Positions 7,174 through 58,675 of a stretch of 64,000 nucleotides of DNA are shown here, piece by piece. The stretch is from contig CM120649.1 in NCBI GenBank assembly GCA_051362555.1, forward strand, positions 7,006,001 to 7,070,000, written 5' to 3'. The notes beneath the pieces are model-generated. The model was not told the DNA's origin. It was given only the letters and a program-made list of their open reading frames with translations, and did not search any database. This DNA comes from Lingula anatina (Eukaryota; Animalia; Brachiopoda). Within the stretch, counting starts at the first letter, position 1; each line of letters opens with the position of its first letter. The translations under genes and the position numbers were made by a program.

Positions 7174-7952
7174 ATGGCGACTGATCACGATCGCGGCGAT
7201 TGTAGCTGGATCCCAATCGTCGATTTAAAGGCGTTTGACATCACAAAAGAAGAAAATGAAGTCGACAGAAAAGATCTGGAAAAGCTTGCTAATGATGTGT
7301 TCAAAGCTTTCAGCACCATAGGATTTGTTTATGTCAAAAATCACGGAATTCCCCAAGATCAGGTTAGCGAGCACGCTGCCGGCTGTTCAGCGGTTAAAGG
7401 CAGTGGCTTATGCAATTTGACGAAAGTGCCGGTGTTTCTGTAATCATTTTACGTAACTGTTAATTGTTGTATTTTGTTGCGAAGTTGAGTTTGATGTTTT
7501 CGCATTTAAATCATAACTAACAGTGTCAAGCTTATATAAGTTATAATTAGATGACCTTACAGAGTGGACGAGGGCAAGAACATTGGGGGGGGGGGGGGGG
7601 GGGGGTAATCGATTTATGTTGCCTCCATTTTATCATATCAAGGAGCGGCAGGTGTGAGAAAATCAGATGAACTTGCAGTCGGAGGACAGTTGGCTATCAG
7701 TAACGTTGAGATATACGAAGAGTTTATCTTGGTTCAAGGCTTTCGAGAGGTGAAGGGGGAAAGGGGGGGCGAGCTGCATGTACGTGCGCCTGTCAGCGTC
7801 TGCCTCTCTGAAAATGAGTCGGATTATGGAATGATTATTTTGTGATATCTGAAGGCTATACTTAACAAATGTATTGATTAATTAATTTATTTATTCATTC
7901 CATTCATTTATTTGTTTGTTTGTCTATTTATTTATTTATAATAATAATAATA

Positions 7953-8011
<59 letters not shown>

Positions 8012-10496
8012 ATCATGTGTTTTGCATTTTGGTGATTTACATTGGTACTATTTGTTATGTTTTGTTTACTCTTAATTTTCATTTTTAGATGAATAAACCT
8101 TTACAGTTAACCATTATTATTCATTCACTTACATAAAATTACATCTTTTACCCCAGAAAATTGTCCTGATGATTATTGTTATATATCAAAATGTATTGTT
8201 TCAAAGCCATGTTGGTAGGAGCACTGTTATTATCCAAAACTCACGAAAAAAAATATTTTTTTCAAAGGGTTTCATTCCTCTGTATTTTCAGATTGACAAT
8301 ATATTCAGGTTGTCAGATGAATTTTTTGCACAACCACAAGAGACCAAAGATAAATTCGTCCGTCCAATGTCTGATCCTGCTGCAATTGGTTACATTCCAA
8401 TTGGAAGAGAATAGTAAGTTTTTTTTTTATACAATACAGACACTGAACCAGTGATATCACTTACACACATACACAAAAAGGCCATACACAATCATTTGAT
8501 CCACGGACACACTAGTCCACGAATCAAGTATGATCAAGTATGACAATTAATTCCTGCCTAGCTCCCACGCTTTCCGTCCCAGCAGGGGCAGAGCAATAAA
8601 TTCTCAGCACACTGTCAAGTGGGTCACGCCATTTTAGATTTGCAGACAAGTTAGTCCATGGATCAAGTGTTTGTGTATGCAGCCAATCAGCTACCTTTCC
8701 ACTCCTTACAAGTATCTGCAGTCACTTATTCTATAGATTTATGTAGAACTATTGATACTTTTTCCTCACGGAATATTGGAGAGAATTATAATGAAGTTTA
8801 CTTCGGATAGGACACATACAAGTATGTAACATGGGTTACTGGGAGCTGCCGATGTGACCGAAAATTCCATTAATTGCTAGCTGGAAGAACATTTTCTTTG
8901 AATGACTGTGTTTTATATTTTCATGGCATTTTAGAGTATTTTCAATCTTAGTATGTCTTCATAGTTGTAGTGTTTATAGTCACAGTTTGATTTCACAATA
9001 GCTTTGAAATATGAATAAAAAACTCAAAAATGAACATTTTTCACTTTTATTGCATAGCTATTGTAAATATGAGTATTATCTATAGCTAATGAATCTATTT
9101 ACACACATCATAGTTTTTTATCGAAACAGAATGTTCTGAACTTGTTTCTAGTTTGTCAGATGATGTAAAAATTCATTTGGACAGAAATATTTAAATGTTG
9201 ATATATATTTCAATTTGAATTAGAAACACTTTGAAAATGTTGTGTTCTAAACATTTTGCAAGCTCCTATTTTCATGGTTTTGCTCTAGTTTTGATGCCAA
9301 CAAACCTGCTGACCTCAAAGAATCATTTGACGCTGTCCCAGGAAGTGAATATTCTCAGGTAAGACAAAAAAAAGCCAGATAAAAGTTTATTTGCAGTCAA
9401 GATTTAGAGATATAGATAAGGATTTTATTGTTAATTTTGCGTCTGAAAAGCAATGCTATAACATGCATACATAGTAAAACACGAAGAAAGAAAGATAAAT
9501 TTCAATATTACATGATTTATTGGCTGAGTTTTATTTTCAGTACTGGCCAAACATACCAAACTTTGAGGAGGATGTTGTTAAGTTCCACAGAACGTGTGCC
9601 AAGCTGGGCTTACGATTGCTCAAACTGATTGGAATGGGATTAGGACTGGAGGTAATGTGTATATATTTAGGTAGACCACATCTGTCTTGAAAAGTTCAAA
9701 CTTGTTGGGGGAGGATATGAAGTGTGTACTTTGTAATGCTCTGCTGGATCTTATTGTGAGGCTTTTGAAAGCAGAAAAGAAGTGGACAAGAAGAAGTGTT
9801 CATTTCCTGTCAGAATGGAGTCTTGTACACGTATTCAATCAAGTTGGGCAAACCAAATTTAATAAAACTCAATATTTTCTTTATTTCTTGGCTCACTAAA
9901 GTCTTGTTTCTATTAAAGTTGGGTTCACCAAACATTGTGATTTAGGAAGCCTAATAGAATATAATGGCTAACCTCAAGTACAGTTCTGGTATATTAAAAA
10001 CAACATAGGGGGTGCGTACTTAAAGATGTCAGACATACTCACTAGTCATGACTCCATTTAAGTTAGGTTGACCTTACTTAGTGAATCCTATCTCAGTTGG
10101 CTCTTTCATTATGATAAAATGGCTATAGGAAGCCTGTTGAATGGAAATGTTGGAGTCCGCAAAACTTCTGAAAGTCTGATATCAATGTAAGTGCCCAGTA
10201 TTATAGTTTTTACTATAAAAATAATTAAAATATTATTTTTTTGCCTTTGAACTGGATGAATCATAATTTACATTCTAATGACTTGAATGTGGACTTAGTT
10301 TACAAACATCTGTTACTTTTCAATAACTATGGAGCCAAATATTTTCATTCCTTTAGAAGTTGTACATGTACAATCCAATATCAGAAAAGAAAATCCAATC
10401 TAAAGAGATGCTGAGTGTTTTGATTGAAATACCCATTGTCACAAATATGTGACATTTTATAAGTCATATAGTAGTTGTGTACAACAACATTCACAG

Positions 10497-10527
<31 letters not shown>

Positions 10528-13500
10528 GTTAAAAAGATCAGAGAGAAAAGATAAAGTGAGAGATGAATGTGAATAATGGACAATTTTATAAGAAATGGGA
10601 TTTCAAAATGAAATTGAATTATGTTATGGGAATACTATATATATAGTAAATGCCATGTATCCATTTTTCTTATATTTGCCTTTGGCCGTCCTTAGCAAAT
10701 GAGATGTACACTAGTTGAAAAAAATGATTCTGACTTCATGTATTTTTTTTTTTAAGGGAAGTTTTTCTTTCTTTCTAGGTCTGCATATTTTTTTGTTAAA
10801 GAACACCAAAAGTGAAAGTACAACAGTGAAAGTTTTCTTTTTCAGGACTCTGAATTTTTTGTAAAAGCACATGAAAAGATCAGTTCAAGAGCCAGCAATA
10901 ACACAGCCATTTTGCGTCTTCTGCACTATCCGCCTGTGAAGGACGGTGAAGGTACAGGGAATTATGGGAAGACTAATGAGTATGGTGGGCTATCACTGAA
11001 AAGTAACACTTTTAAGGCATACAATGTGTATAAGACCTTTATACAGCTGAAAATAATTTTCCTGTTTTCAGGTTTTATCTTTGATTCATTCTTGTATTAG
11101 AGATGGAAACTGGGGAATGCTACTTTTGACAATATACCATGAAAAATTAAGAGGGGAAAAGGATTGAAATTTCGCTGAAAAAAATCTATATATTTTTTTT
11201 TATTTTGATGTTTGAATGTCTATCACACATTGTGTGCCTTTAGAAGAGGAATTTCAATTTTTTTGCCCAAAAAGTGGTTTTGAACCAGCTGTAACTGACC
11301 ATGCATGTATTTGATAATGATGATATAAATTTGGGAGATAGGTGGTCGTATATAACTAATATTTCTTTGGTGTTTTTAGTGACTGCTTTCCCATTGTGTC
11401 TAGCACTTTATGCTGTGGCATTACAAAAAACGTTCTTTTAGTTGTAGCTAGAAGTCTTTTTTTTTTTTTTTTTGTCTTGCTTACTAAGTACTGTTTGGTG
11501 GTTTTCAGTTCTGGCAATGCCATTCAAAATGTACATGAAAGAGTCACACATAGAGCAGCTGCATGCTATTAATTTACTATTTTTGTTTTTATTTTTTATT
11601 AGGGCTTAATCTTTAGGTTCTCTAACATCTTTTTATACTCCCTGTTATTTTTGTTTTAGGTGTGTTGCTCTATTAATATGCATGTGTTGAAGAATATCAC
11701 ATATTGCACTGCTTACCTTTTTCATTAAAAATGTGGGTTTTGTTATATTTGTGTGCTGTCTTATTTTCGTAGGACCAAAATGAGTTGCTTATGTGTCATA
11801 CACATCTTGAAAATTGGCGTAATAACAGCACAACAAGTTTGCGGCTTTTGACCTATCCTGCACGTACTGAAGAAGAAGGTAGCAAGGGCTTGAAAGCAGG
11901 CTTTGAAAATCGCTTCACTATAGAAAGCTCACCATTTTATCAAAAAATAACTGCCATGAAAAAGTTTCTAGTCTATGTCATATACACTACCCCCATGCAA
12001 AATGTCAGTTAATTAAAAAGATTGGTCAGTAGTACTCAATGAAATTTATTTGGTTACTGGCCACTGTTTCTAATTTGGCCCATTCTTTGACCCTGTTGAC
12101 CTGAAGGACCAGTTAGCATGCTAAAAAGGTCTTGGCAGTGTATAAGTTTTATTAAAATCAGTTGAAACCTGGAAAAATCAAATTGTAAATTGCAGGTGCT
12201 TTATATGCAGCCTGGCTCACTTGAAGCTGTTGGTTGTCAGAATCATTTATATTTTAGCATAGTATGAGTTTCATTAAAATCACTTATAAGTACAGGAGCA
12301 ATCAAATTGGCAATTGTAAGTGCTTTATATGCAGCCTGGCTTACTTTGCACTGTTGGTTGTCGCAGTTACGTATGTGCTTGGCAAAATATGTATAGACTA
12401 ATGGTGTGCTTTGGGTTACTTGGAACAAGGTTCTTCCAGCTCTTGATCACATGATTATATAACTTGTTGTTATCCTATTTTTTGTTAAAGAAAGCTTCCA
12501 TATGCTAGATAGCCGAGGAGGTTTTGAAGGGCTCATTTACATTGAAACTATTGGTCTAAGTAGGTCAATCTGTTAAACTGATTGCAGGTGAGAGTCTCTT
12601 AGGAGTTGATCTACAGAGGCAGATGTTTTCAATGAGAATGAACCCAAACCTATTTCATATTTCTACATTCCTATTATCTCTCTTATTTACACCTTTTGGT
12701 GATCATTTAATGTAGCCATTTTTAGATATGCGTCTATATAACAGTTTTCTCAAGTGTTATGTGTGATTTTAACAATAAGGAGAATAACACAACATTTTCT
12801 GAGTGACATTTATTTCTTTTGTTTTCAGACTTTCTGCCAGACCAGACACGCTGTGGTGAACACACGGATTACGGCTCCATGACTCTGCTCTTCCAGGATG
12901 ACACTGGAGGCCTGGAGGTAATTGTGTTGGGTGTGACATTGTGCGTGTTGTGTTAGGTGTGACAATTTGTCAGCTGGGGCAGTGTGTTAGGTGTGACAAT
13001 GTGAAATGGTAACCTTCTGTAATATTGTTGGGACAGTGTGTTGGGTGTGAGAGTGTGCCACCTTTGTTAGATGTGACAGTGTGCCAGCTGAGACATTTTG
13101 TTAGGTGTGATAATATGTCAGTTGGGACAGTGTGTTAGGTGTGACACTTTGCCAGCTGGGACAATGTGTTAGATGTGACAATGTCAGCTAGGGCAATGTG
13201 TTAGGTGTGACAATGTGTTAACTGGAGCAGTGTGTTAGGTGTGACAACTTGTCAGTTGGGACAGTGTGTTGGGTGTGACAAGTGTTAGTTGGAACATTGT
13301 GTTACGTATGACAATATGTCAGTATGTCAATTGTCATATAGTGACATTTTGTAATATAGTGACACTGTGAAATGGTAACCTTCTGTAATATAATATAATA
13401 TCACTTTGTGATACAGTGACACTGATGTAGTGACAATGTGATATAATGACAGTTTGTTAGGTGTGACAATGTGTCAGCTGCATCTGACAATACTTTCAAA

Positions 13501-15896
13501 CTTCACCAGGTCCAGACAGTGAACGGGGAGTTCAAGCCAGCCACGCCCATACCAGGCACTGTGGTGGTCAACATAGCCGACATGATGCAGAGGTGGACAG
13601 CGGATGGACTCAAGTCCACTGTGAGTACATGTCCACTACACTGGTGTTTTCTAAGGCCTTCTTCCCTGTTAGTGTTGACTGACTAATTGTCTTTTGATTG
13701 CGTGCTGTCTACTACTCTGCTTTGACTAAGTGTTTTGGTGCCTCAGTCATCCACCGTATTGTATATGAGGGTGGCACTTACAAATAGAAATTTTAGTGTT
13801 CTTGCATTGGTTTTGATGTATATTTTAGTTTAACAGCTAATTGTGTCTTAAGTAAACAGTGGTTTTTGGATTGTTAAATTCATTGATATGGTTATGTTTT
13901 ATTGTGTCTTGATGATCTGAACCAGAGAAATTAGTTCTTAAAGTTTGGAAATGACGTTCTGATCAACAAGGTACATTTTTTTTCTTTACTGGACTCACTC
14001 TATCTTTGTCTCTTTACTCGAGCATTTTAAAAGTAATCTCATTTTTTAATTTACTTTGTTTTGCATCAGTGGTATGTCTAATTTTCCACTGCTCAAAAAA
14101 TGATTTTTATGCACCTTTAAATTTCCAAAAGAAACCAAAAAAAAAAACCATACAAAGCACATGGACTGTCCATACACTCACGGGAATACCAAACAGTGAC
14201 TTTTGTAACCTAGGTTTTTGACCAGAATTTTGTACTTGAATGAGATTGATTTAAAAAAAAAGCTCATTTCTTCACTATTTCATGACATTGGAGTGAGTCC
14301 TGTTTTATGTTGTGCTCTTCTTAATTGGCTTTAAGAACAGGTTTAACAAAAGAAAAAAAATGTTTTTGAACATATTTCAGAATGTAGACTCTTGATATGA
14401 ATCTCATATTAGTAATAATAGTTTTTAATATTTAATCCCTTTAAACCTTGCTATTTGTAATGTTTGCTTACCATTCATCATCCACTGCCAAAGGTTCACA
14501 AGCATTGTGTGCCAGCTTCCTTTTCAAATTTCCGTGCAATCTCACTTCACACCTCTGACTTTCAGTGATTAAGTTTTACTATAATTATCACAAAATATTA
14601 GATTGGTATACATTAATTATGGCACATGCCCTTCTATTAAGCCACCTAATCTTCACACACATTGTCAGAGTCTGATAAGTCTGGTAAGCTGAACCATGGT
14701 AGTTTGACAATGGAAAAAACTGGCAAACATCAAATCTTAAGCTCATATTAGATTCACAGAGTATGACAGAGGTTTACCTGGTTGTAATGAAGCGTCTACA
14801 TCCTGATGTAAAAACTGAAAACATTTTTTTGTCAAAACTGTTCTGTAAATGGCCTTGACCTTTCAGTGTTGTGTTCTTCCTTTTTCTAGCCCCACCGTGT
14901 TGTACCCTCCAATAAGAGGAAGGCACGTAGAAGTGTAATCTATTTTATCGACCCTGATCGCTCTACGATTGTGAGGCCCCTAGATGGGTCTAACAAATAC
15001 CCTCCCATCTCTTATGTTAACTACCTATCACAGAGATTTGCTGACACGGGAATGCTTGAAGGAAACGAAGTCATTAACACAGCTGCATAAGTTTGCATGT
15101 AAGATTTTTTTTGTTGTTTTGTCTTAAAAAATCCTGAATGTAAGCTTAATTTGCTTTTTATGGCTTTGTTGCGCTTTGTTACTGTTGCTTCGTAAGCATT
15201 CCATTTGATGGTTGAGGCATTTGTGATTTTTTCTCAACAATTTTGCAGGGATTTTTGAAAAATTATTTATTTATCAAATTATAAATTTGTTTATACTTTC
15301 ACTTGCTTCTGTTTTGGAGCATGAAAAAAACATCACTTTTAGCTTAGTTCCTAGCTTTTTCTTTCCCCTTAACTAAATTTTAATCTGCCCCTTGGGTTTT
15401 TATGAGTTGATACTGTACTCACTGGTAGAACCAGATTTTTCATTATCACTGTACTCACTGGGAGAACCAGATTTTTCATTATCACTGTACTCACTGGGAG
15501 AACCAGATTTTTCTAAAATGGCACAGAGAGTTTTGTCAGATTTGTGTTATCACCATTGTAATTTTGTAAAAATTATAGTTAAATTTTTTTGTTCTTTTTT
15601 AAAGATATTCACAGTAGTAAACAAAATCCTACATGTTTTGCCTGTACTTGACCCACTGACCTTAACCAACTGACCTTCACCCACTGACCTTGACCTTTTC
15701 ATTGTAGTGTCACAGAGTGATCCCCCATAGGAAGACCAAACCAAGGCGTTCTATGGCATTTTTCATTGATCCTGATGGGGACGCAGTGATTGCGCCTTTG
15801 GACAATTCCAAAAAGTATCCACCAATAAAGTTTATAGACTACTTCAACAAACGTTATGAAGAAACAGGAATGACTCGGGAGGAACATATACAGTAG
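7174..15896 (+). CDS. 2-oxoglutarate/Fe(II)-dependent dioxygenase (DIOX_N + 2OG-FeII_Oxy, IPNS/ACC-oxidase-like fold), about 328-332 aa, with duplicated alternative exons
   Basis: Constant exons 7174-7362, 8292-8413, 9289-9358, 9541-9651, 12829-12917, 13510-13620. Alternative exon 5 is 10846-10951 or 11773-11878; the terminal exon is 14890-15090 or 15708-15896. Motifs: IPIVDL, GFVYVKNHGI, DLKESF, LRLLHYPP, CGEHTDYGSMTLLFQD..GGLEV (HxD), VVNIADMMQRWT...KST-xHRV (distal His), RRS (RxS). Confidence 0.92.
7954..8010. repeat. (TTA)n microsatellite
   Basis: Perfect trinucleotide run. Confidence 0.95.
8480..8685. mobile_element. MITE-like dispersed repeat (second copy inverted at about 54868-55056)
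   Basis: Ends TTGATCCACGGAC and GTCCATGGATCAA. The core GTCCCAGCAGGGGCAGAGCAAT..TCTCAGCAC..TCAAGTGGGT is the reverse complement of sequence at about 54918-54967. Confidence 0.7.
10761..10815 (+). pseudogene. Decayed partial copy of the exon 5A acceptor and 5' end
   Basis: Pyrimidine tract plus AG ending at 10778. In the +1 frame it reads SAYFFVKEHQK* versus DSEFFVKAHEK in exon 5A. Confidence 0.6.
10846..10951 (+). CDS. Dioxygenase alternative exon 5A (DSEFFVKAHEKISSRASNNTAILRLLHYPPVKDGE)
   Basis: TTTTTCAG acceptor, G|GTACAG donor, 106 nt, phase 0 in and phase 1 out, open reading frame. Confidence 0.9.
11773..11878 (+). CDS. Dioxygenase alternative exon 5B (DQNELLMCHTHLENWRNNSTTSLRLLTYPARTEEE)
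   Basis: TTTTCGTAG acceptor, G|GTAGCA donor, 106 nt, same phases as 5A, open frame, aligns to 5A without gaps. Confidence 0.85.
12920..13490. repeat. Degenerate minisatellite (about 33-bp unit, GTGTGTTAGGTGTGACAATGTGTCAGCTGGGACA) filling dioxygenase intron 6
   Basis: TGTTAGGTGTGACA recurs many times across the intron. Confidence 0.85.
14890..15090 (+). CDS. Dioxygenase alternative terminal exon 8A (PHRVVPSNKRKARRSVIYFIDPD...NTAA*)
   Basis: TTTTTCTAG acceptor, phase 0, 66 codons plus TAA. Carries HRV, RRS, FIDPD and KYPPI. Confidence 0.88.
   Translation, partial: PHRVVPSNKRKARRSVIYFIDPDRSTIVRPLDGSNKYPPISYVNYLSQRFADTGMLEGNEVINTAA
15412..15512. repeat. 36-bp tandem repeat, about 3 copies, between exons 8A and 8B
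   Basis: ACTGTACTCACTGG(G/T)AGAACCAGATTTTTCATTATC repeated. Confidence 0.9.
15708..15896 (+). CDS. Dioxygenase alternative terminal exon 8B (CHRVIPHRKTKPRRSMAFFIDPD...EHIQ*)
   Basis: TTTTCATTGTAG acceptor, phase 0, 62 codons plus TAG. Same motifs as 8A; an AATAAA lies downstream at about 16778. Confidence 0.88.
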   Translation, partial: CHRVIPHRKTKPRRSMAFFIDPDGDAVIAPLDNSKKYPPIKFIDYFNKRYEETGMTREEHIQ

Positions 15897-17339
15897 ATGG
15901 TTTATATCTAATGAGACAATCATGTTACTTAACTGATTACATTTTGACGTTGCCTAACATTGTCTTCAGGATTATGCCAAGATTATATGTTTATTTGTAT
16001 TGATAATGCTGAAAATGTCAAGATGTTTTCTCTTAGAAATTATGACATTCATAATTGGTTTAATTTGACAAAGTAAATAATCCATCCACACTGTTGATGA
16101 TGCGGGAATATAACTGCTGGTATTTGAAGAAAGTGCTTGTTTCACTAAACACCTTTGGACCATTTGGACCATTTTTCTTTAAAATTAAAAAAAAAATTAA
16201 ACCATTGAAAATACTCTGTTGTGTCTGTGCCTAAAGTTATAGTGATTTTATTGGTTTGAAAGCTGTATATACAGGTTTTATATTTGATGATTGATATTGC
16301 TTTATGATATTATCTGGGTTGTTGACTTTTTTCCCAACAAGTGGCAATTTTTGGCCACTATTTTGGCTTCATAATTCTGTGAAAGTTAAGTGTGCAATTA
16401 TATTCTTTTGGTTGCTTTGAAGGTTTATGATTTGAATTATTAGATTAAGTTTTTGAAATTATTGTAAAGCTTTCAGCAAGCTTTTTTAAACCAATTATTA
16501 TTTGAAATTCCGAAGTGTTCGTAAAAAACATAATGGCACTTTTAAGCTATGCTGTATATATTTTTCTTTCATTTACCTGATTGTCTTATACCAAATTTAA
16601 GCCAATATTTAGGCATTTTTACAAAGTGGCAATATTTTAATTTGTTTACTCTTTTTGTTAATAAGCGATTGTGGAAAGACTGAAAAGCATTTTTAAAATT
16701 ATTAGTTTCAATCATTGTTGGATGGGAGCTGTTGAATTATTCAGATGAAAGTGTCACATTGTTGTTGATCAATTGGGAATAAAGCAGTAGGTTGATTGGT
16801 TACTTGCACATGTATTATTTGTTTATTTAATATATTTTGGAAATCTGAATACTTTTTATTCAAGTTCCTGAACATAAGCTAATAGGAGCAATCGGGGGGG
16901 GGGAGCAATTTTCTTCATGTAATGTTCAATTTGGATAAGGGAATGACACTTTATATGTGTAAAATATCACGTATTCCCTCACCTTCTCTTTTATTTGTCC
17001 TTTTTGTTTATTCTTGTTGCAGTCCGTGAATTAGTTCTAGTATTTATTTATTTATTTATTTATTTATTTATTATTATTATTTTTATTTTTTTGAAGAGCT
17101 TTAACATTCAGGTTAGTCGAACATACATGAAAAGCTGCGTGGTTCACACAGGCACTGTGTTCAATTCTGCTTTAAAATCTTTAGTAACAGTACGCTCTAG
17201 GACAACAAAGATTTAAACGTTAGAATTTATAACACCGACGTTTGGGCCTACTGTATGGGGAACAAGCGTCCTGTCTTTCTTATTTCAAAAATATTAAGAA
17301 AGTATGTGGACCCACTTTGACGCACCACACCTTACAATG

Positions 17340-20099: not shown

Positions 20100-20530
20100 T
20101 CAAACTTAGTGCTAAAATCACTTCCTGCGGAAAAGGAGATTTCTGTTAATAAGACCCCACCGACACGTATTTATGACGTTTTAACTAAGATTAAAGCTAT
20201 GAATAGTCTATCAAACGCAAATATCCCAGAAATGAGTCACTCGCGTTGAGACATTAGGTACGCTGATAATTGATAAAGAAAACATTCCTCGGAAAGTAAT
20301 AAACCTCATTAAGAGAGTTATTACTCATCATTTCAAACTGCAACTAGTCATGAAAACAAGTAAGGTGCTGCAAAGCTAGAAATGTATGTGCGAATTTTTC
20401 TGTAATAAATTTATTGCGCTGCCGCACTTTGGGGCTTCCGATTGTGTCTGATGCGGAAGATAGCAGCCGAGTGCACATAGACTCGTCCATCCAACCCTTC
20501 CACCCCCGCCGCGGAAGTAGGTCAATCAAG

Positions 20531-20540
<10 letters not shown>
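20100..20540 (+). promoter_or_regulatory. CpG-rich DGK promoter/5' UTR with ETS-like and YY1-like motifs
   Basis: CACTTCCT at about 20119, CGGAAGT at about 20512, and CAAGATGGCG overlapping the ATG at 20531. These are motif matches only. Confidence 0.4.

Positions 20541-58675
<38,135 letters not shown>

Follow-up and report, generated by a model that had tools for sequence, protein, structure and literature searches.

Exons 5 and 8 of a single 2-oxoglutarate (2OG)/Fe(II) dioxygenase gene of the brachiopod Lingula anatina each exist as two copies, and inclusion or skipping of one of them, exon 8A, changes the tail of the encoded enzyme from sample to sample. The gene lies on the forward strand of a stretch of 64,000 nucleotides (nt) that was analysed as a whole (the window; GenBank assembly GCA_051362555.1, contig CM120649.1, positions 7,006,001 to 7,070,000). 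We consider it probable that this is one gene in which the sample-dependent choice of 8A tunes substrate access and not the core chemistry. An earlier reading of the same DNA made without database searches (the sequence-only reading) had proposed a combinatorial gene, with two versions of exon 5 (5A, 5B) freely combined with two terminal exons (8A, 8B) into four enzymes that differ in their substrate pocket.

The gene encodes a Lingula dioxygenase resembling thymine-7-hydroxylase (T7H) and IPNS. In all three isoforms scanned the DIOX_N (PF14226, about 84 bits) and 2OG-FeII_Oxy (PF03171, 73-80 bits) domains score above the curated cut-offs, and the HxD...H iron triad and the RxS 2OG motif are present in every isoform. 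Neurospora T7H is the best match to a solved structure by sequence (E = 1e-39) as well as the best fold match of the predicted 5B+8A model (PDB 5C3P, template modelling score 0.80, 34% identity). Both predicted models, 5B+8A and 5A-long+8B, are confident (predicted local distance difference test, pLDDT, 90.9 and 90.0, respectively) and adopt a double-stranded beta-helix fold like that of T7H, the template modelling score being that of 5B+8A. The IPNS-type family assignment of the sequence-only reading is borne out by these domains, the triad and the fold, as is its placement of the HxD iron ligands on the constant exon 6. Exon 1 is 98% identical to a Lingula anatina RefSeq protein named 'UPF0676 protein C1494.01'.

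Exons 1-4, 6 and 7 are single, while exons 5 and 8 are present as two intact, phase-matched homologues. In an exon model rebuilt from the window all ten exons have AG/GT boundaries, and the four possible joins of 5A or 5B with 8A or 8B translate without internal stops into products of 332, 328, 332 and 328 amino acids (aa), the size range given before. Exon profiles built from 115 non-Lingula homologues and run over 2953 six-frame pieces of the window yielded one match each for exons 1-4, 6 and 7 and two for exon 8 (E = 7e-21 and 4e-20), and translation and profile searches found no further copies of any exon within the window. Joins and profiles thus confirm the duplication pattern first proposed. 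The exon-5 profile matched 5A at E = 1.5e-10, but for 5B the value was only 0.062; the homology of 5B is therefore judged from its equal length and phases, its LRLLxYP motif and the fact that full-length database proteins use it in the corresponding place. Both copies of exon 5 are 106 nt long, run from phase 0 to phase 1 and are identical at 11 of 35 aa, and 5B is the most diverged part of the gene. Including both would bring a stop at codon 203 and including neither a stop at codon 182, so that exon 5 shows the matched length and phase and the frame dependence of mutually exclusive homologous exons. Exon 8A contains the distal His, the RxS motif, the Phe and the C-terminal helix; it is like 8B at 28 of 63 aligned positions. 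Over their first 55 codons the two are identical in nucleotide at 40 second and 15 third codon positions, a pattern that looks like that of long purifying selection.

RNA reads show that 8A is a cassette exon whose use differs strongly between samples. Raw reads were taken from four of nine listed runs carrying the same species label, covering 6-25% of each, and counts are given below in the order X1, X4, X7, X2; the threshold for listing a joint was 3 reads from 2 starts. Exon 7 is joined to 8A in 31, 0, 2 and 36 reads (a row with a variant first codon counted in) and to 8B in 1, 27, 6 and 6 reads, so that the 8A share of junction reads runs from 0/27 in run X4 to 31/32 in run X1 (Fisher p = 6e-16). 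The 8A donor at 15098, 8 nt after the 8A stop, is joined to the 8B acceptor in 25, 3, 4 and 19 reads (51 in total) and depth just beyond it is 0-1. Exon 8A is therefore a cassette, and the mRNA contains 8B in either case: with 8A included, translation ends in 8A and 8B is 3' untranslated region (UTR), and with 8A skipped, 8B supplies the tail. Neither AATAAA nor ATTAAA occurs between 15090 and 15708, and the UTR beyond the 8B coding part extends to about 16100-16900 as judged from RNA depth bins. Alternative terminal exons with separate poly(A) sites, as which 8A and 8B had been read from the sequence, are ruled out by the 51 reads that splice one onto the other. The arrangement instead has the features of a C-terminal cassette of the KRAS 4A/4B type, namely an upstream exon with its own stop that is included or skipped and a downstream exon that is always in the mRNA.

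Sequence elements around the switch offer one lead. A predicted hairpin spanning the 8A stop and donor (15088-15148) scored 1/200 against shuffles; it is only a lead because it was chosen after an inverted repeat had been noticed, in a region whose scan gave 30 inverted pairs. Its 3' arm contains a second donor-like GT near 15140 that is used by no listed joint. Folds at the 5A donor, the 5B donor and the 8B acceptor are no better than shuffles (z = 0.36, 1.29 and 1.26). A 14-nt tandem repeat of 3.5 copies (window 15647-15695) lies shortly before the 8B acceptor and repeats a branch-point-like motif. AG-free zones extend 88 nt before 8B and 78 nt before 5B, and 11-23 nt before 5A, exon 6 and 8A.

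Every run read uses 5A as its exon 5, either in a short form or in one longer by 11 residues. Reads joining exon 4 to 5A (50, 17, 11 and 48) make up all 126 exon-4 junction reads. The 5A donor at 10951 is used in 28, 24, 3 and 37 reads (92 in total) and the donor at 10984 in 8, 6, 11 and 15 (40 in total, in all four runs); the 11-aa extension so produced falls in a low-confidence loop, with pLDDT <50 at residues 201-208 of the 5A-long+8B model. A steric block between 5A and 5B was considered and rejected, as the intron between them measures about 820 nt and the last branch-like motif stands 99 nt before 5B. Among the inverted repeats around exon 5, no convincing docking/selector pairing was found.

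Junction counts also constrain how the two choices combine. By a pigeonhole argument, 5A-short+8A accounts for at least 75% of transcripts in run X1 and at least 57% in run X2, and 5A-short+8B for about 80% of run X4 (about 70% when the 3 downstream 8A reads are counted). RefSeq holds the gene as XP_013406537/538/540/541 and XP_013412357/359/360, automatic annotations of another allele comprising isoforms X1-X4. Isoforms X1 (5A-long+8A), X2 (5A-long+8B) and X3 (5A+8A) are modelled at two near-identical loci and isoform X4 (5B+8A, XP_013406541.1) at one of them. Because the window differs from both RefSeq alleles at a few residues, all four alternative exons are present in at least two haplotypes. 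Neither 5A-short+8B nor 5B+8B occurs among the database protein matches, yet the reads imply that the former dominates run X4. A coupling of 5A with 8B and of 5B with 8A, suspected from the sequence, is consequently contradicted as an exclusive pairing by the abundance of 5A+8A in two runs; all that survives of it is that 5B is always found with 8A-type tails.

The two exon copies keep the same first-shell residues and differ around them. Active-site residues of T7H (PMC4787775; this and the other papers are cited for the parts of them that were drawn upon) were mapped through the sequence alignment. The Lingula enzyme, about 34% identical to T7H, keeps the equivalents of H214, D216, H271, R190, L192, Y194, R286, S288, Y217 and F292. 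Exon 5 holds the equivalents of R190, L192 and Y194 and exon 8 those of H271, V273, R286, S288, F292 and N294, and all nine of these metal, 2OG and substrate positions are identical between A and B copies. Three of six T7H substrate contacts are identical (R190, Y217, F292), and those equivalent to N87, N294 and E122 are replaced by Ala, Asp and, by motif, Asp; because of these differences the substrate is not assignable from the likeness to T7H. Between 5A and 5B, Ile is exchanged for Ser at T7H position 188, two places before the exon-5 Arg, and His for Thr at position 193. At T7H positions 290-291, 8A has Ile-Tyr, 8B has Ala-Phe and the Lingula paralogs described below have Ile- or Val-Tyr; Ala-Phe occurs in 78 of the 115 homologues, and both Ile-Tyr and Val-Tyr are absent from the eight commonest pairs listed. 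Strand alternation suggests that positions 188 and 290, the latter two places after the RxS serine, should face the pocket, and the isoforms would differ at them by Ile vs Ser and by Ala vs Ile. They would also differ in the C-terminal helix, residues 308-318 of the predicted 5B+8A model, which lies on exon 8. In the related enzyme TraH the C-terminal helix is part of a gate and a lid loop is N-terminal (PMC13083874); by analogy, such a lid would be constant in the Lingula gene. The differences between copies thus appear to be second-shell and in the gate helix. That isoforms differ in substrate pocket, as had been claimed, is unproven; a measurable difference in substrate preference or kinetics has slightly better than an even chance in our estimate, and a full substrate switch is doubtful.

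Exons 5B and 8A appear to be the derived copies and recur together in Lingula paralogs. Of the 115 non-Lingula homologues, 84 are nearer to 5A and 15 to 5B, and 68 are nearer to 8B and 30 to 8A, which upholds the earlier impression that 5A and 8B are nearer the family. Four Lingula paralog proteins were found (P0006, P0007, P0008, P0014), all with 5B-type and 8A-type segments only. In trees drawn from 28 named homologues of the 115 (20 for the constant exons), all Lingula exon-8 rows group together (34 rows, 57 columns; support 96/86) with 8A beside the paralogs (99/94), and 5B groups with the paralogs in the exon-5 tree (33 columns; 98/100). The split between gene and paralogs is shallow in the constant-exon tree. 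Identity to the paralogs is 57-87% for constant exons, 69-71% for 5B and 52-58% for 8A, and the same paralog segments are only 31-34% identical to 5A and 37-39% to 8B. A deletion of several residues after the distal His is common to 8A, 8B and the paralogs; together with the joint grouping of Lingula rows this makes the exon-8 duplication look specific to the Lingula lineage among the taxa sampled. In the matches listed (120 of 216), no short fragment from other brachiopods exceeded 61% identity. The grouping of paralog segments with one copy of each exon suggests splice-isoform separation, with 5B and 8A as the sole versions in the four paralog proteins. The simplest order would be exon duplication, divergence of 5B and 8A within the gene, and then gene duplication with paralogs keeping the derived pair.

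Several observations on the relatives stand beside this history. In the four paralog proteins the VVNI motif of exon 7 lacks its Asn, and the residue before RW is Pro in place of Gln; such changes, lying outside the swapped exons, may mark altered function. P0008 and P0014 (XP_013409668/669), which RefSeq lists as isoforms of a single paralog, agree completely as far as exon 5 and diverge over the exon 6-8 region, either through a younger duplication of the 3' half or because the model joins tandem genes. Amphioxus LOC144923418 isoforms X4 and X1 (P0017/P0028) were examined as a case of the same arrangement and rejected: they differ through homologous substitutions over the 150 N-terminal residues and not at exon 5 or 8, possibly because 5' exons are duplicated or because the model is a chimera within a tandem cluster.

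Read variants point to constraint on three of the four alternative exons. Of the 40 variant rows listed (out of 102), 26 fell in coding exons. All 11 in 5A, 8A and 8B (5, 2 and 4) are synonymous, compared with a random expectation of 20-24%; of the 15 in constant exons, 7 alter an amino acid if each is scored on its own. Because its variants are all synonymous, 8B is constrained as protein though it doubles as UTR. The window and RefSeq versions of 5B differ at 2 of 35 aa, those of the remainder at 3 of 297 (p = 0.09), a weak hint of relaxed constraint on 5B. One of the conditions under which the sequence-only reading would have been abandoned, that one exon of each pair is unexpressed and neutral, does not hold for exon 8, where both copies are spliced and their variants are synonymous; for exon 5 it has in its favour the absence of 5B junctions from the four runs read.

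Under the reading that we favour, choosing 8A exchanges the last 62-66 residues of the enzyme. Nonsense-mediated decay follows a 50-55 nt rule. The 8A mRNA would escape it because the 8A stop stands 8 nt before the last junction, and since inclusion of both or neither copy of exon 5 shifts the frame, decay could enforce the choice of one of the two. The 5A+8B form would be the ancestral-type enzyme, and 5B and 8A would have diverged within the gene to make a second form. Whole-gene duplications would afterwards have given rise to paralogs encoding only the derived 5B+8A type, leaving 5B in the parent gene rare or restricted to unsampled tissues. A candidate function is to hydroxylate a small planar metabolite that, as in T7H, would be held between the conserved Tyr and Phe.

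A number of points weigh against this interpretation. None of the four runs read, of the nine, lists a joint into or out of 5B; zero of 126 exon-4 reads gives a pooled 95% upper bound of about 2.3%, bases in the bin holding 5B number 0, 38, 0 and 0, and inclusion of 5B is recorded by a single automatic RefSeq model, placed at one of the two near-identical loci. The 8A junctions of run X4 disagree slightly, with 0 reads upstream and 3 downstream. The switch between runs could be partly genetic; run X7 represents a more diverged genotype (most reads 95-99% alike), yet both tails are used in it. The exon-5 tree does not group 5A with 5B, and a single clade is neither rejected nor shown (approximately unbiased test, p = 0.20). 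Loss of 5A and 8B from the paralog loci is inferred from four proteins only, and the variants scored come from 40 of 102 rows. Finally, the identity of the nine mapped first-shell positions means that the isoforms may be near-equivalent.

Other explanations account for parts of these data. The one that we take most seriously, though we think it less likely than not, holds that 5B+8A is a second enzyme with its own substrate, evolved within the gene through two co-adapting, duplicated active-site exons and later released as paralogs, the parent still switching chemistry between tissues through inclusion or skipping of 8A; one genome would then still contain living ancestral, hybrid and derived forms, a directly testable path of neofunctionalisation by splicing. 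Conversely, chemistry and substrate might be the same throughout, the swap altering stability, location, partners or mRNA control and 5B being a decaying relic whose role passed to the paralogs. The shared first shell, the silence of 5B in four runs and its residue differences would all suit this account, as would the finding that human homologous exons mostly keep their ligand-binding residues (80.6%; PMC9741552). We nevertheless think it unlikely, as 5B is intact and resembles its paralog copies as closely as constant exons do, 8A and the paralogs carry Ile/Val-Tyr at a site that is Ala-Phe in most homologues, and samples differ strongly in their 8A/8B ratio. A free 2 x 2 gene with four substrate pockets is more improbable still. 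Its four frames are open, RefSeq models 5A+8A, 5A-long+8A, 5A-long+8B and 5B+8A, the two copies of each exon have diverged strongly, and active-site strands lie on both exons; against the free matrix stand the absence of 5B from all exon-4 reads of the four runs and of 5B+8B from the database matches, the identical first shell and the fact that 8A is a cassette instead of a terminal exon.

The order of events could also be reversed, with the gene duplicated first and a diverged paralog afterwards donating copies of its exons 5 and 8 to the parent through recombination or gene conversion. The grouping of both 5B and 8A with the paralogs would agree with such copying, and tandem paralogs of this dioxygenase family are common in animals, several per species. 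Two separate insertions would be required, however, and 8A is less similar to the paralogs than most constant exons are, the reverse of what copying predicts unless the constant exons were homogenised; we regard this origin as very improbable. Least credible of all is an origin of the extra exons in an assembly artefact or in an interleaved paralog. RefSeq places the gene on two scaffolds, so that haplotype duplication does occur in that assembly, yet junction reads connect exon 7 with 8A as well as with 8B, and 8A with 8B, which refutes an artefact for exon 8, no second copy of exons 1-4, 6 and 7 exists in the window, and a different allele carries all four alternative exons. A separate paralog or artefact, against which the sequence-only reading had itself warned, is thus contradicted by reads, profiles and the RefSeq allele, which all indicate one gene.

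The KRAS 4A/4B swap mainly alters a membrane-targeting tail, whereas at Lingula exon 8 an iron ligand, the RxS strand that binds 2OG and the gate helix are all exchanged. The layout is the same, an upstream homologous exon with its own stop being spliced onto a downstream one that is then untranslated (PMC5945503), and KRAS 4A/4B is entered as a tandem duplication event in a survey of 236 such substitution events in 215 human genes, 14 of which have more than one event (PMC8373072). As in that human set, duplicated homologous exons of the Lingula gene are swapped internally and C-terminally with core ligand residues conserved. It differs in that active-site strands of a single catalytic domain lie on both swapped exons, while the human events overlap ligand sites less than expected (10.7% vs 14%; PMC9741552), and in that its duplications appear lineage-confined among the proteins found. 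Variable residues of homologous exons tend to cluster near functional sites (PMC7954323). P4HA1 exons 9a/9b, likewise duplicated, mutually exclusive and regulated by condition, also belong to a 2OG/Fe(II) dioxygenase (PMC11868403, PMC8373072), in that case a collagen prolyl hydroxylase with a protein substrate and a single swap. Splice-isoform separation after gene duplication is described for 11 vertebrate cases; in CDC42, FYN, SLC8A3 and CACNA1, as here, paralogs encode one ancestral exon and another copy keeps splicing (PMC4494069). In the Lingula case, as judged from the paralog proteins, two derived exons at separate sites appear together in the paralogs.

Each ingredient is therefore known and the isoforms are already modelled in RefSeq; what is unusual is the presence of two swaps inside one catalytic domain and the reappearance of the derived pair together in paralogs. 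Novelty, which the sequence-only reading had left tentative, accordingly narrows: enzyme exon swapping, P4HA1 included, is a described class, and our literature search, which reached few subscription papers and no supplements, found nothing about this gene, nor about exon duplication in any IPNS/T7H-like dioxygenase. Should the isoforms prove to differ in chemistry, the gene would be a compact natural experiment in how a new enzyme may arise by exon duplication before gene duplication. The ancestral-type 5A+8B, the abundant hybrid 5A+8A, the derived 5B+8A and the paralogs could be compared on one constant scaffold. Such a comparison would also open a way into a dioxygenase family that is widespread in animals and whose members, in the database matches, mostly bear the name uncharacterised. 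If they do not differ, this is well-supported, ordinary homologous-exon splicing that RefSeq already models.

Table 1. Positions of the gene's exons and associated features in the window.
Feature	Position	Strand	Evidence
Exon 1, coding part, constant; start of DIOX_N domain	7174..7362	+	Loose RNA read ends at 8288 match its 3' end
Exon 2, constant	8292..8413	+	RNA joint 8413-9289 in 4/4 runs
Exon 3, constant	9289..9358	+	Exon model, RNA
Exon 4, constant	9541..9651	+	Exon model, RNA
Exon 5A, family-like, dominant; strand with T7H R190/L192/Y194 equivalents	10846..10951	+	126 exon-4 junction reads; 92 reads from donor 10951 to exon 6
33-nt in-frame extension of 5A via second donor, +11 aa	10952..10984	+	40 junction reads, 4/4 runs; RefSeq isoforms X1/X2
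Exon 5B, apparently derived, intact; no spliced junction in runs read	11773..11878	+	Sequence; RefSeq isoform X4
Exon 6, constant; HxD iron ligands and T7H Y217 equivalent	12829..12917	+	Exon model, T7H alignment
Exon 7, constant	13510..13620	+	Exon model, RNA
Exon 8A, apparently derived cassette; stop at 15090, donor 15098	14890..15098	+	Junction reads exon 7 to 8A and 8A to 8B
Predicted hairpin over 8A stop and donor, lead only	15088..15148	+	-19.1 kcal/mol, z -3.25
Exon 8B coding part, family-like tail	15708..15896	+	Exon 7 to 8B junction reads, depth bins

Further features of the window touch the gene less directly. Three reads of run X7 link exon 2 to intron 1 sequence near 7750 (window 7658-7753; loose ends), hinting at a minor extra exon or an alternative start. 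Intron 6 contains a degenerate 17/34-nt minisatellite (window 12920-13480), which is probably a dispersed repeat because opposite-strand reads from elsewhere align there. Five neighbouring open reading frames had no Pfam match at E 0.01; two Ser/Pro-rich frames, 20354-20761 and 44475-44915, likewise lack such a match and resemble exons of neighbouring genes on the + strand. Longer tandem arrays occupy 38295-39558, 42296-42688 and 43873-44234, with periods of 143/433 and 159-160 nt, and the 159-160 nt unit is present at two places in the window.

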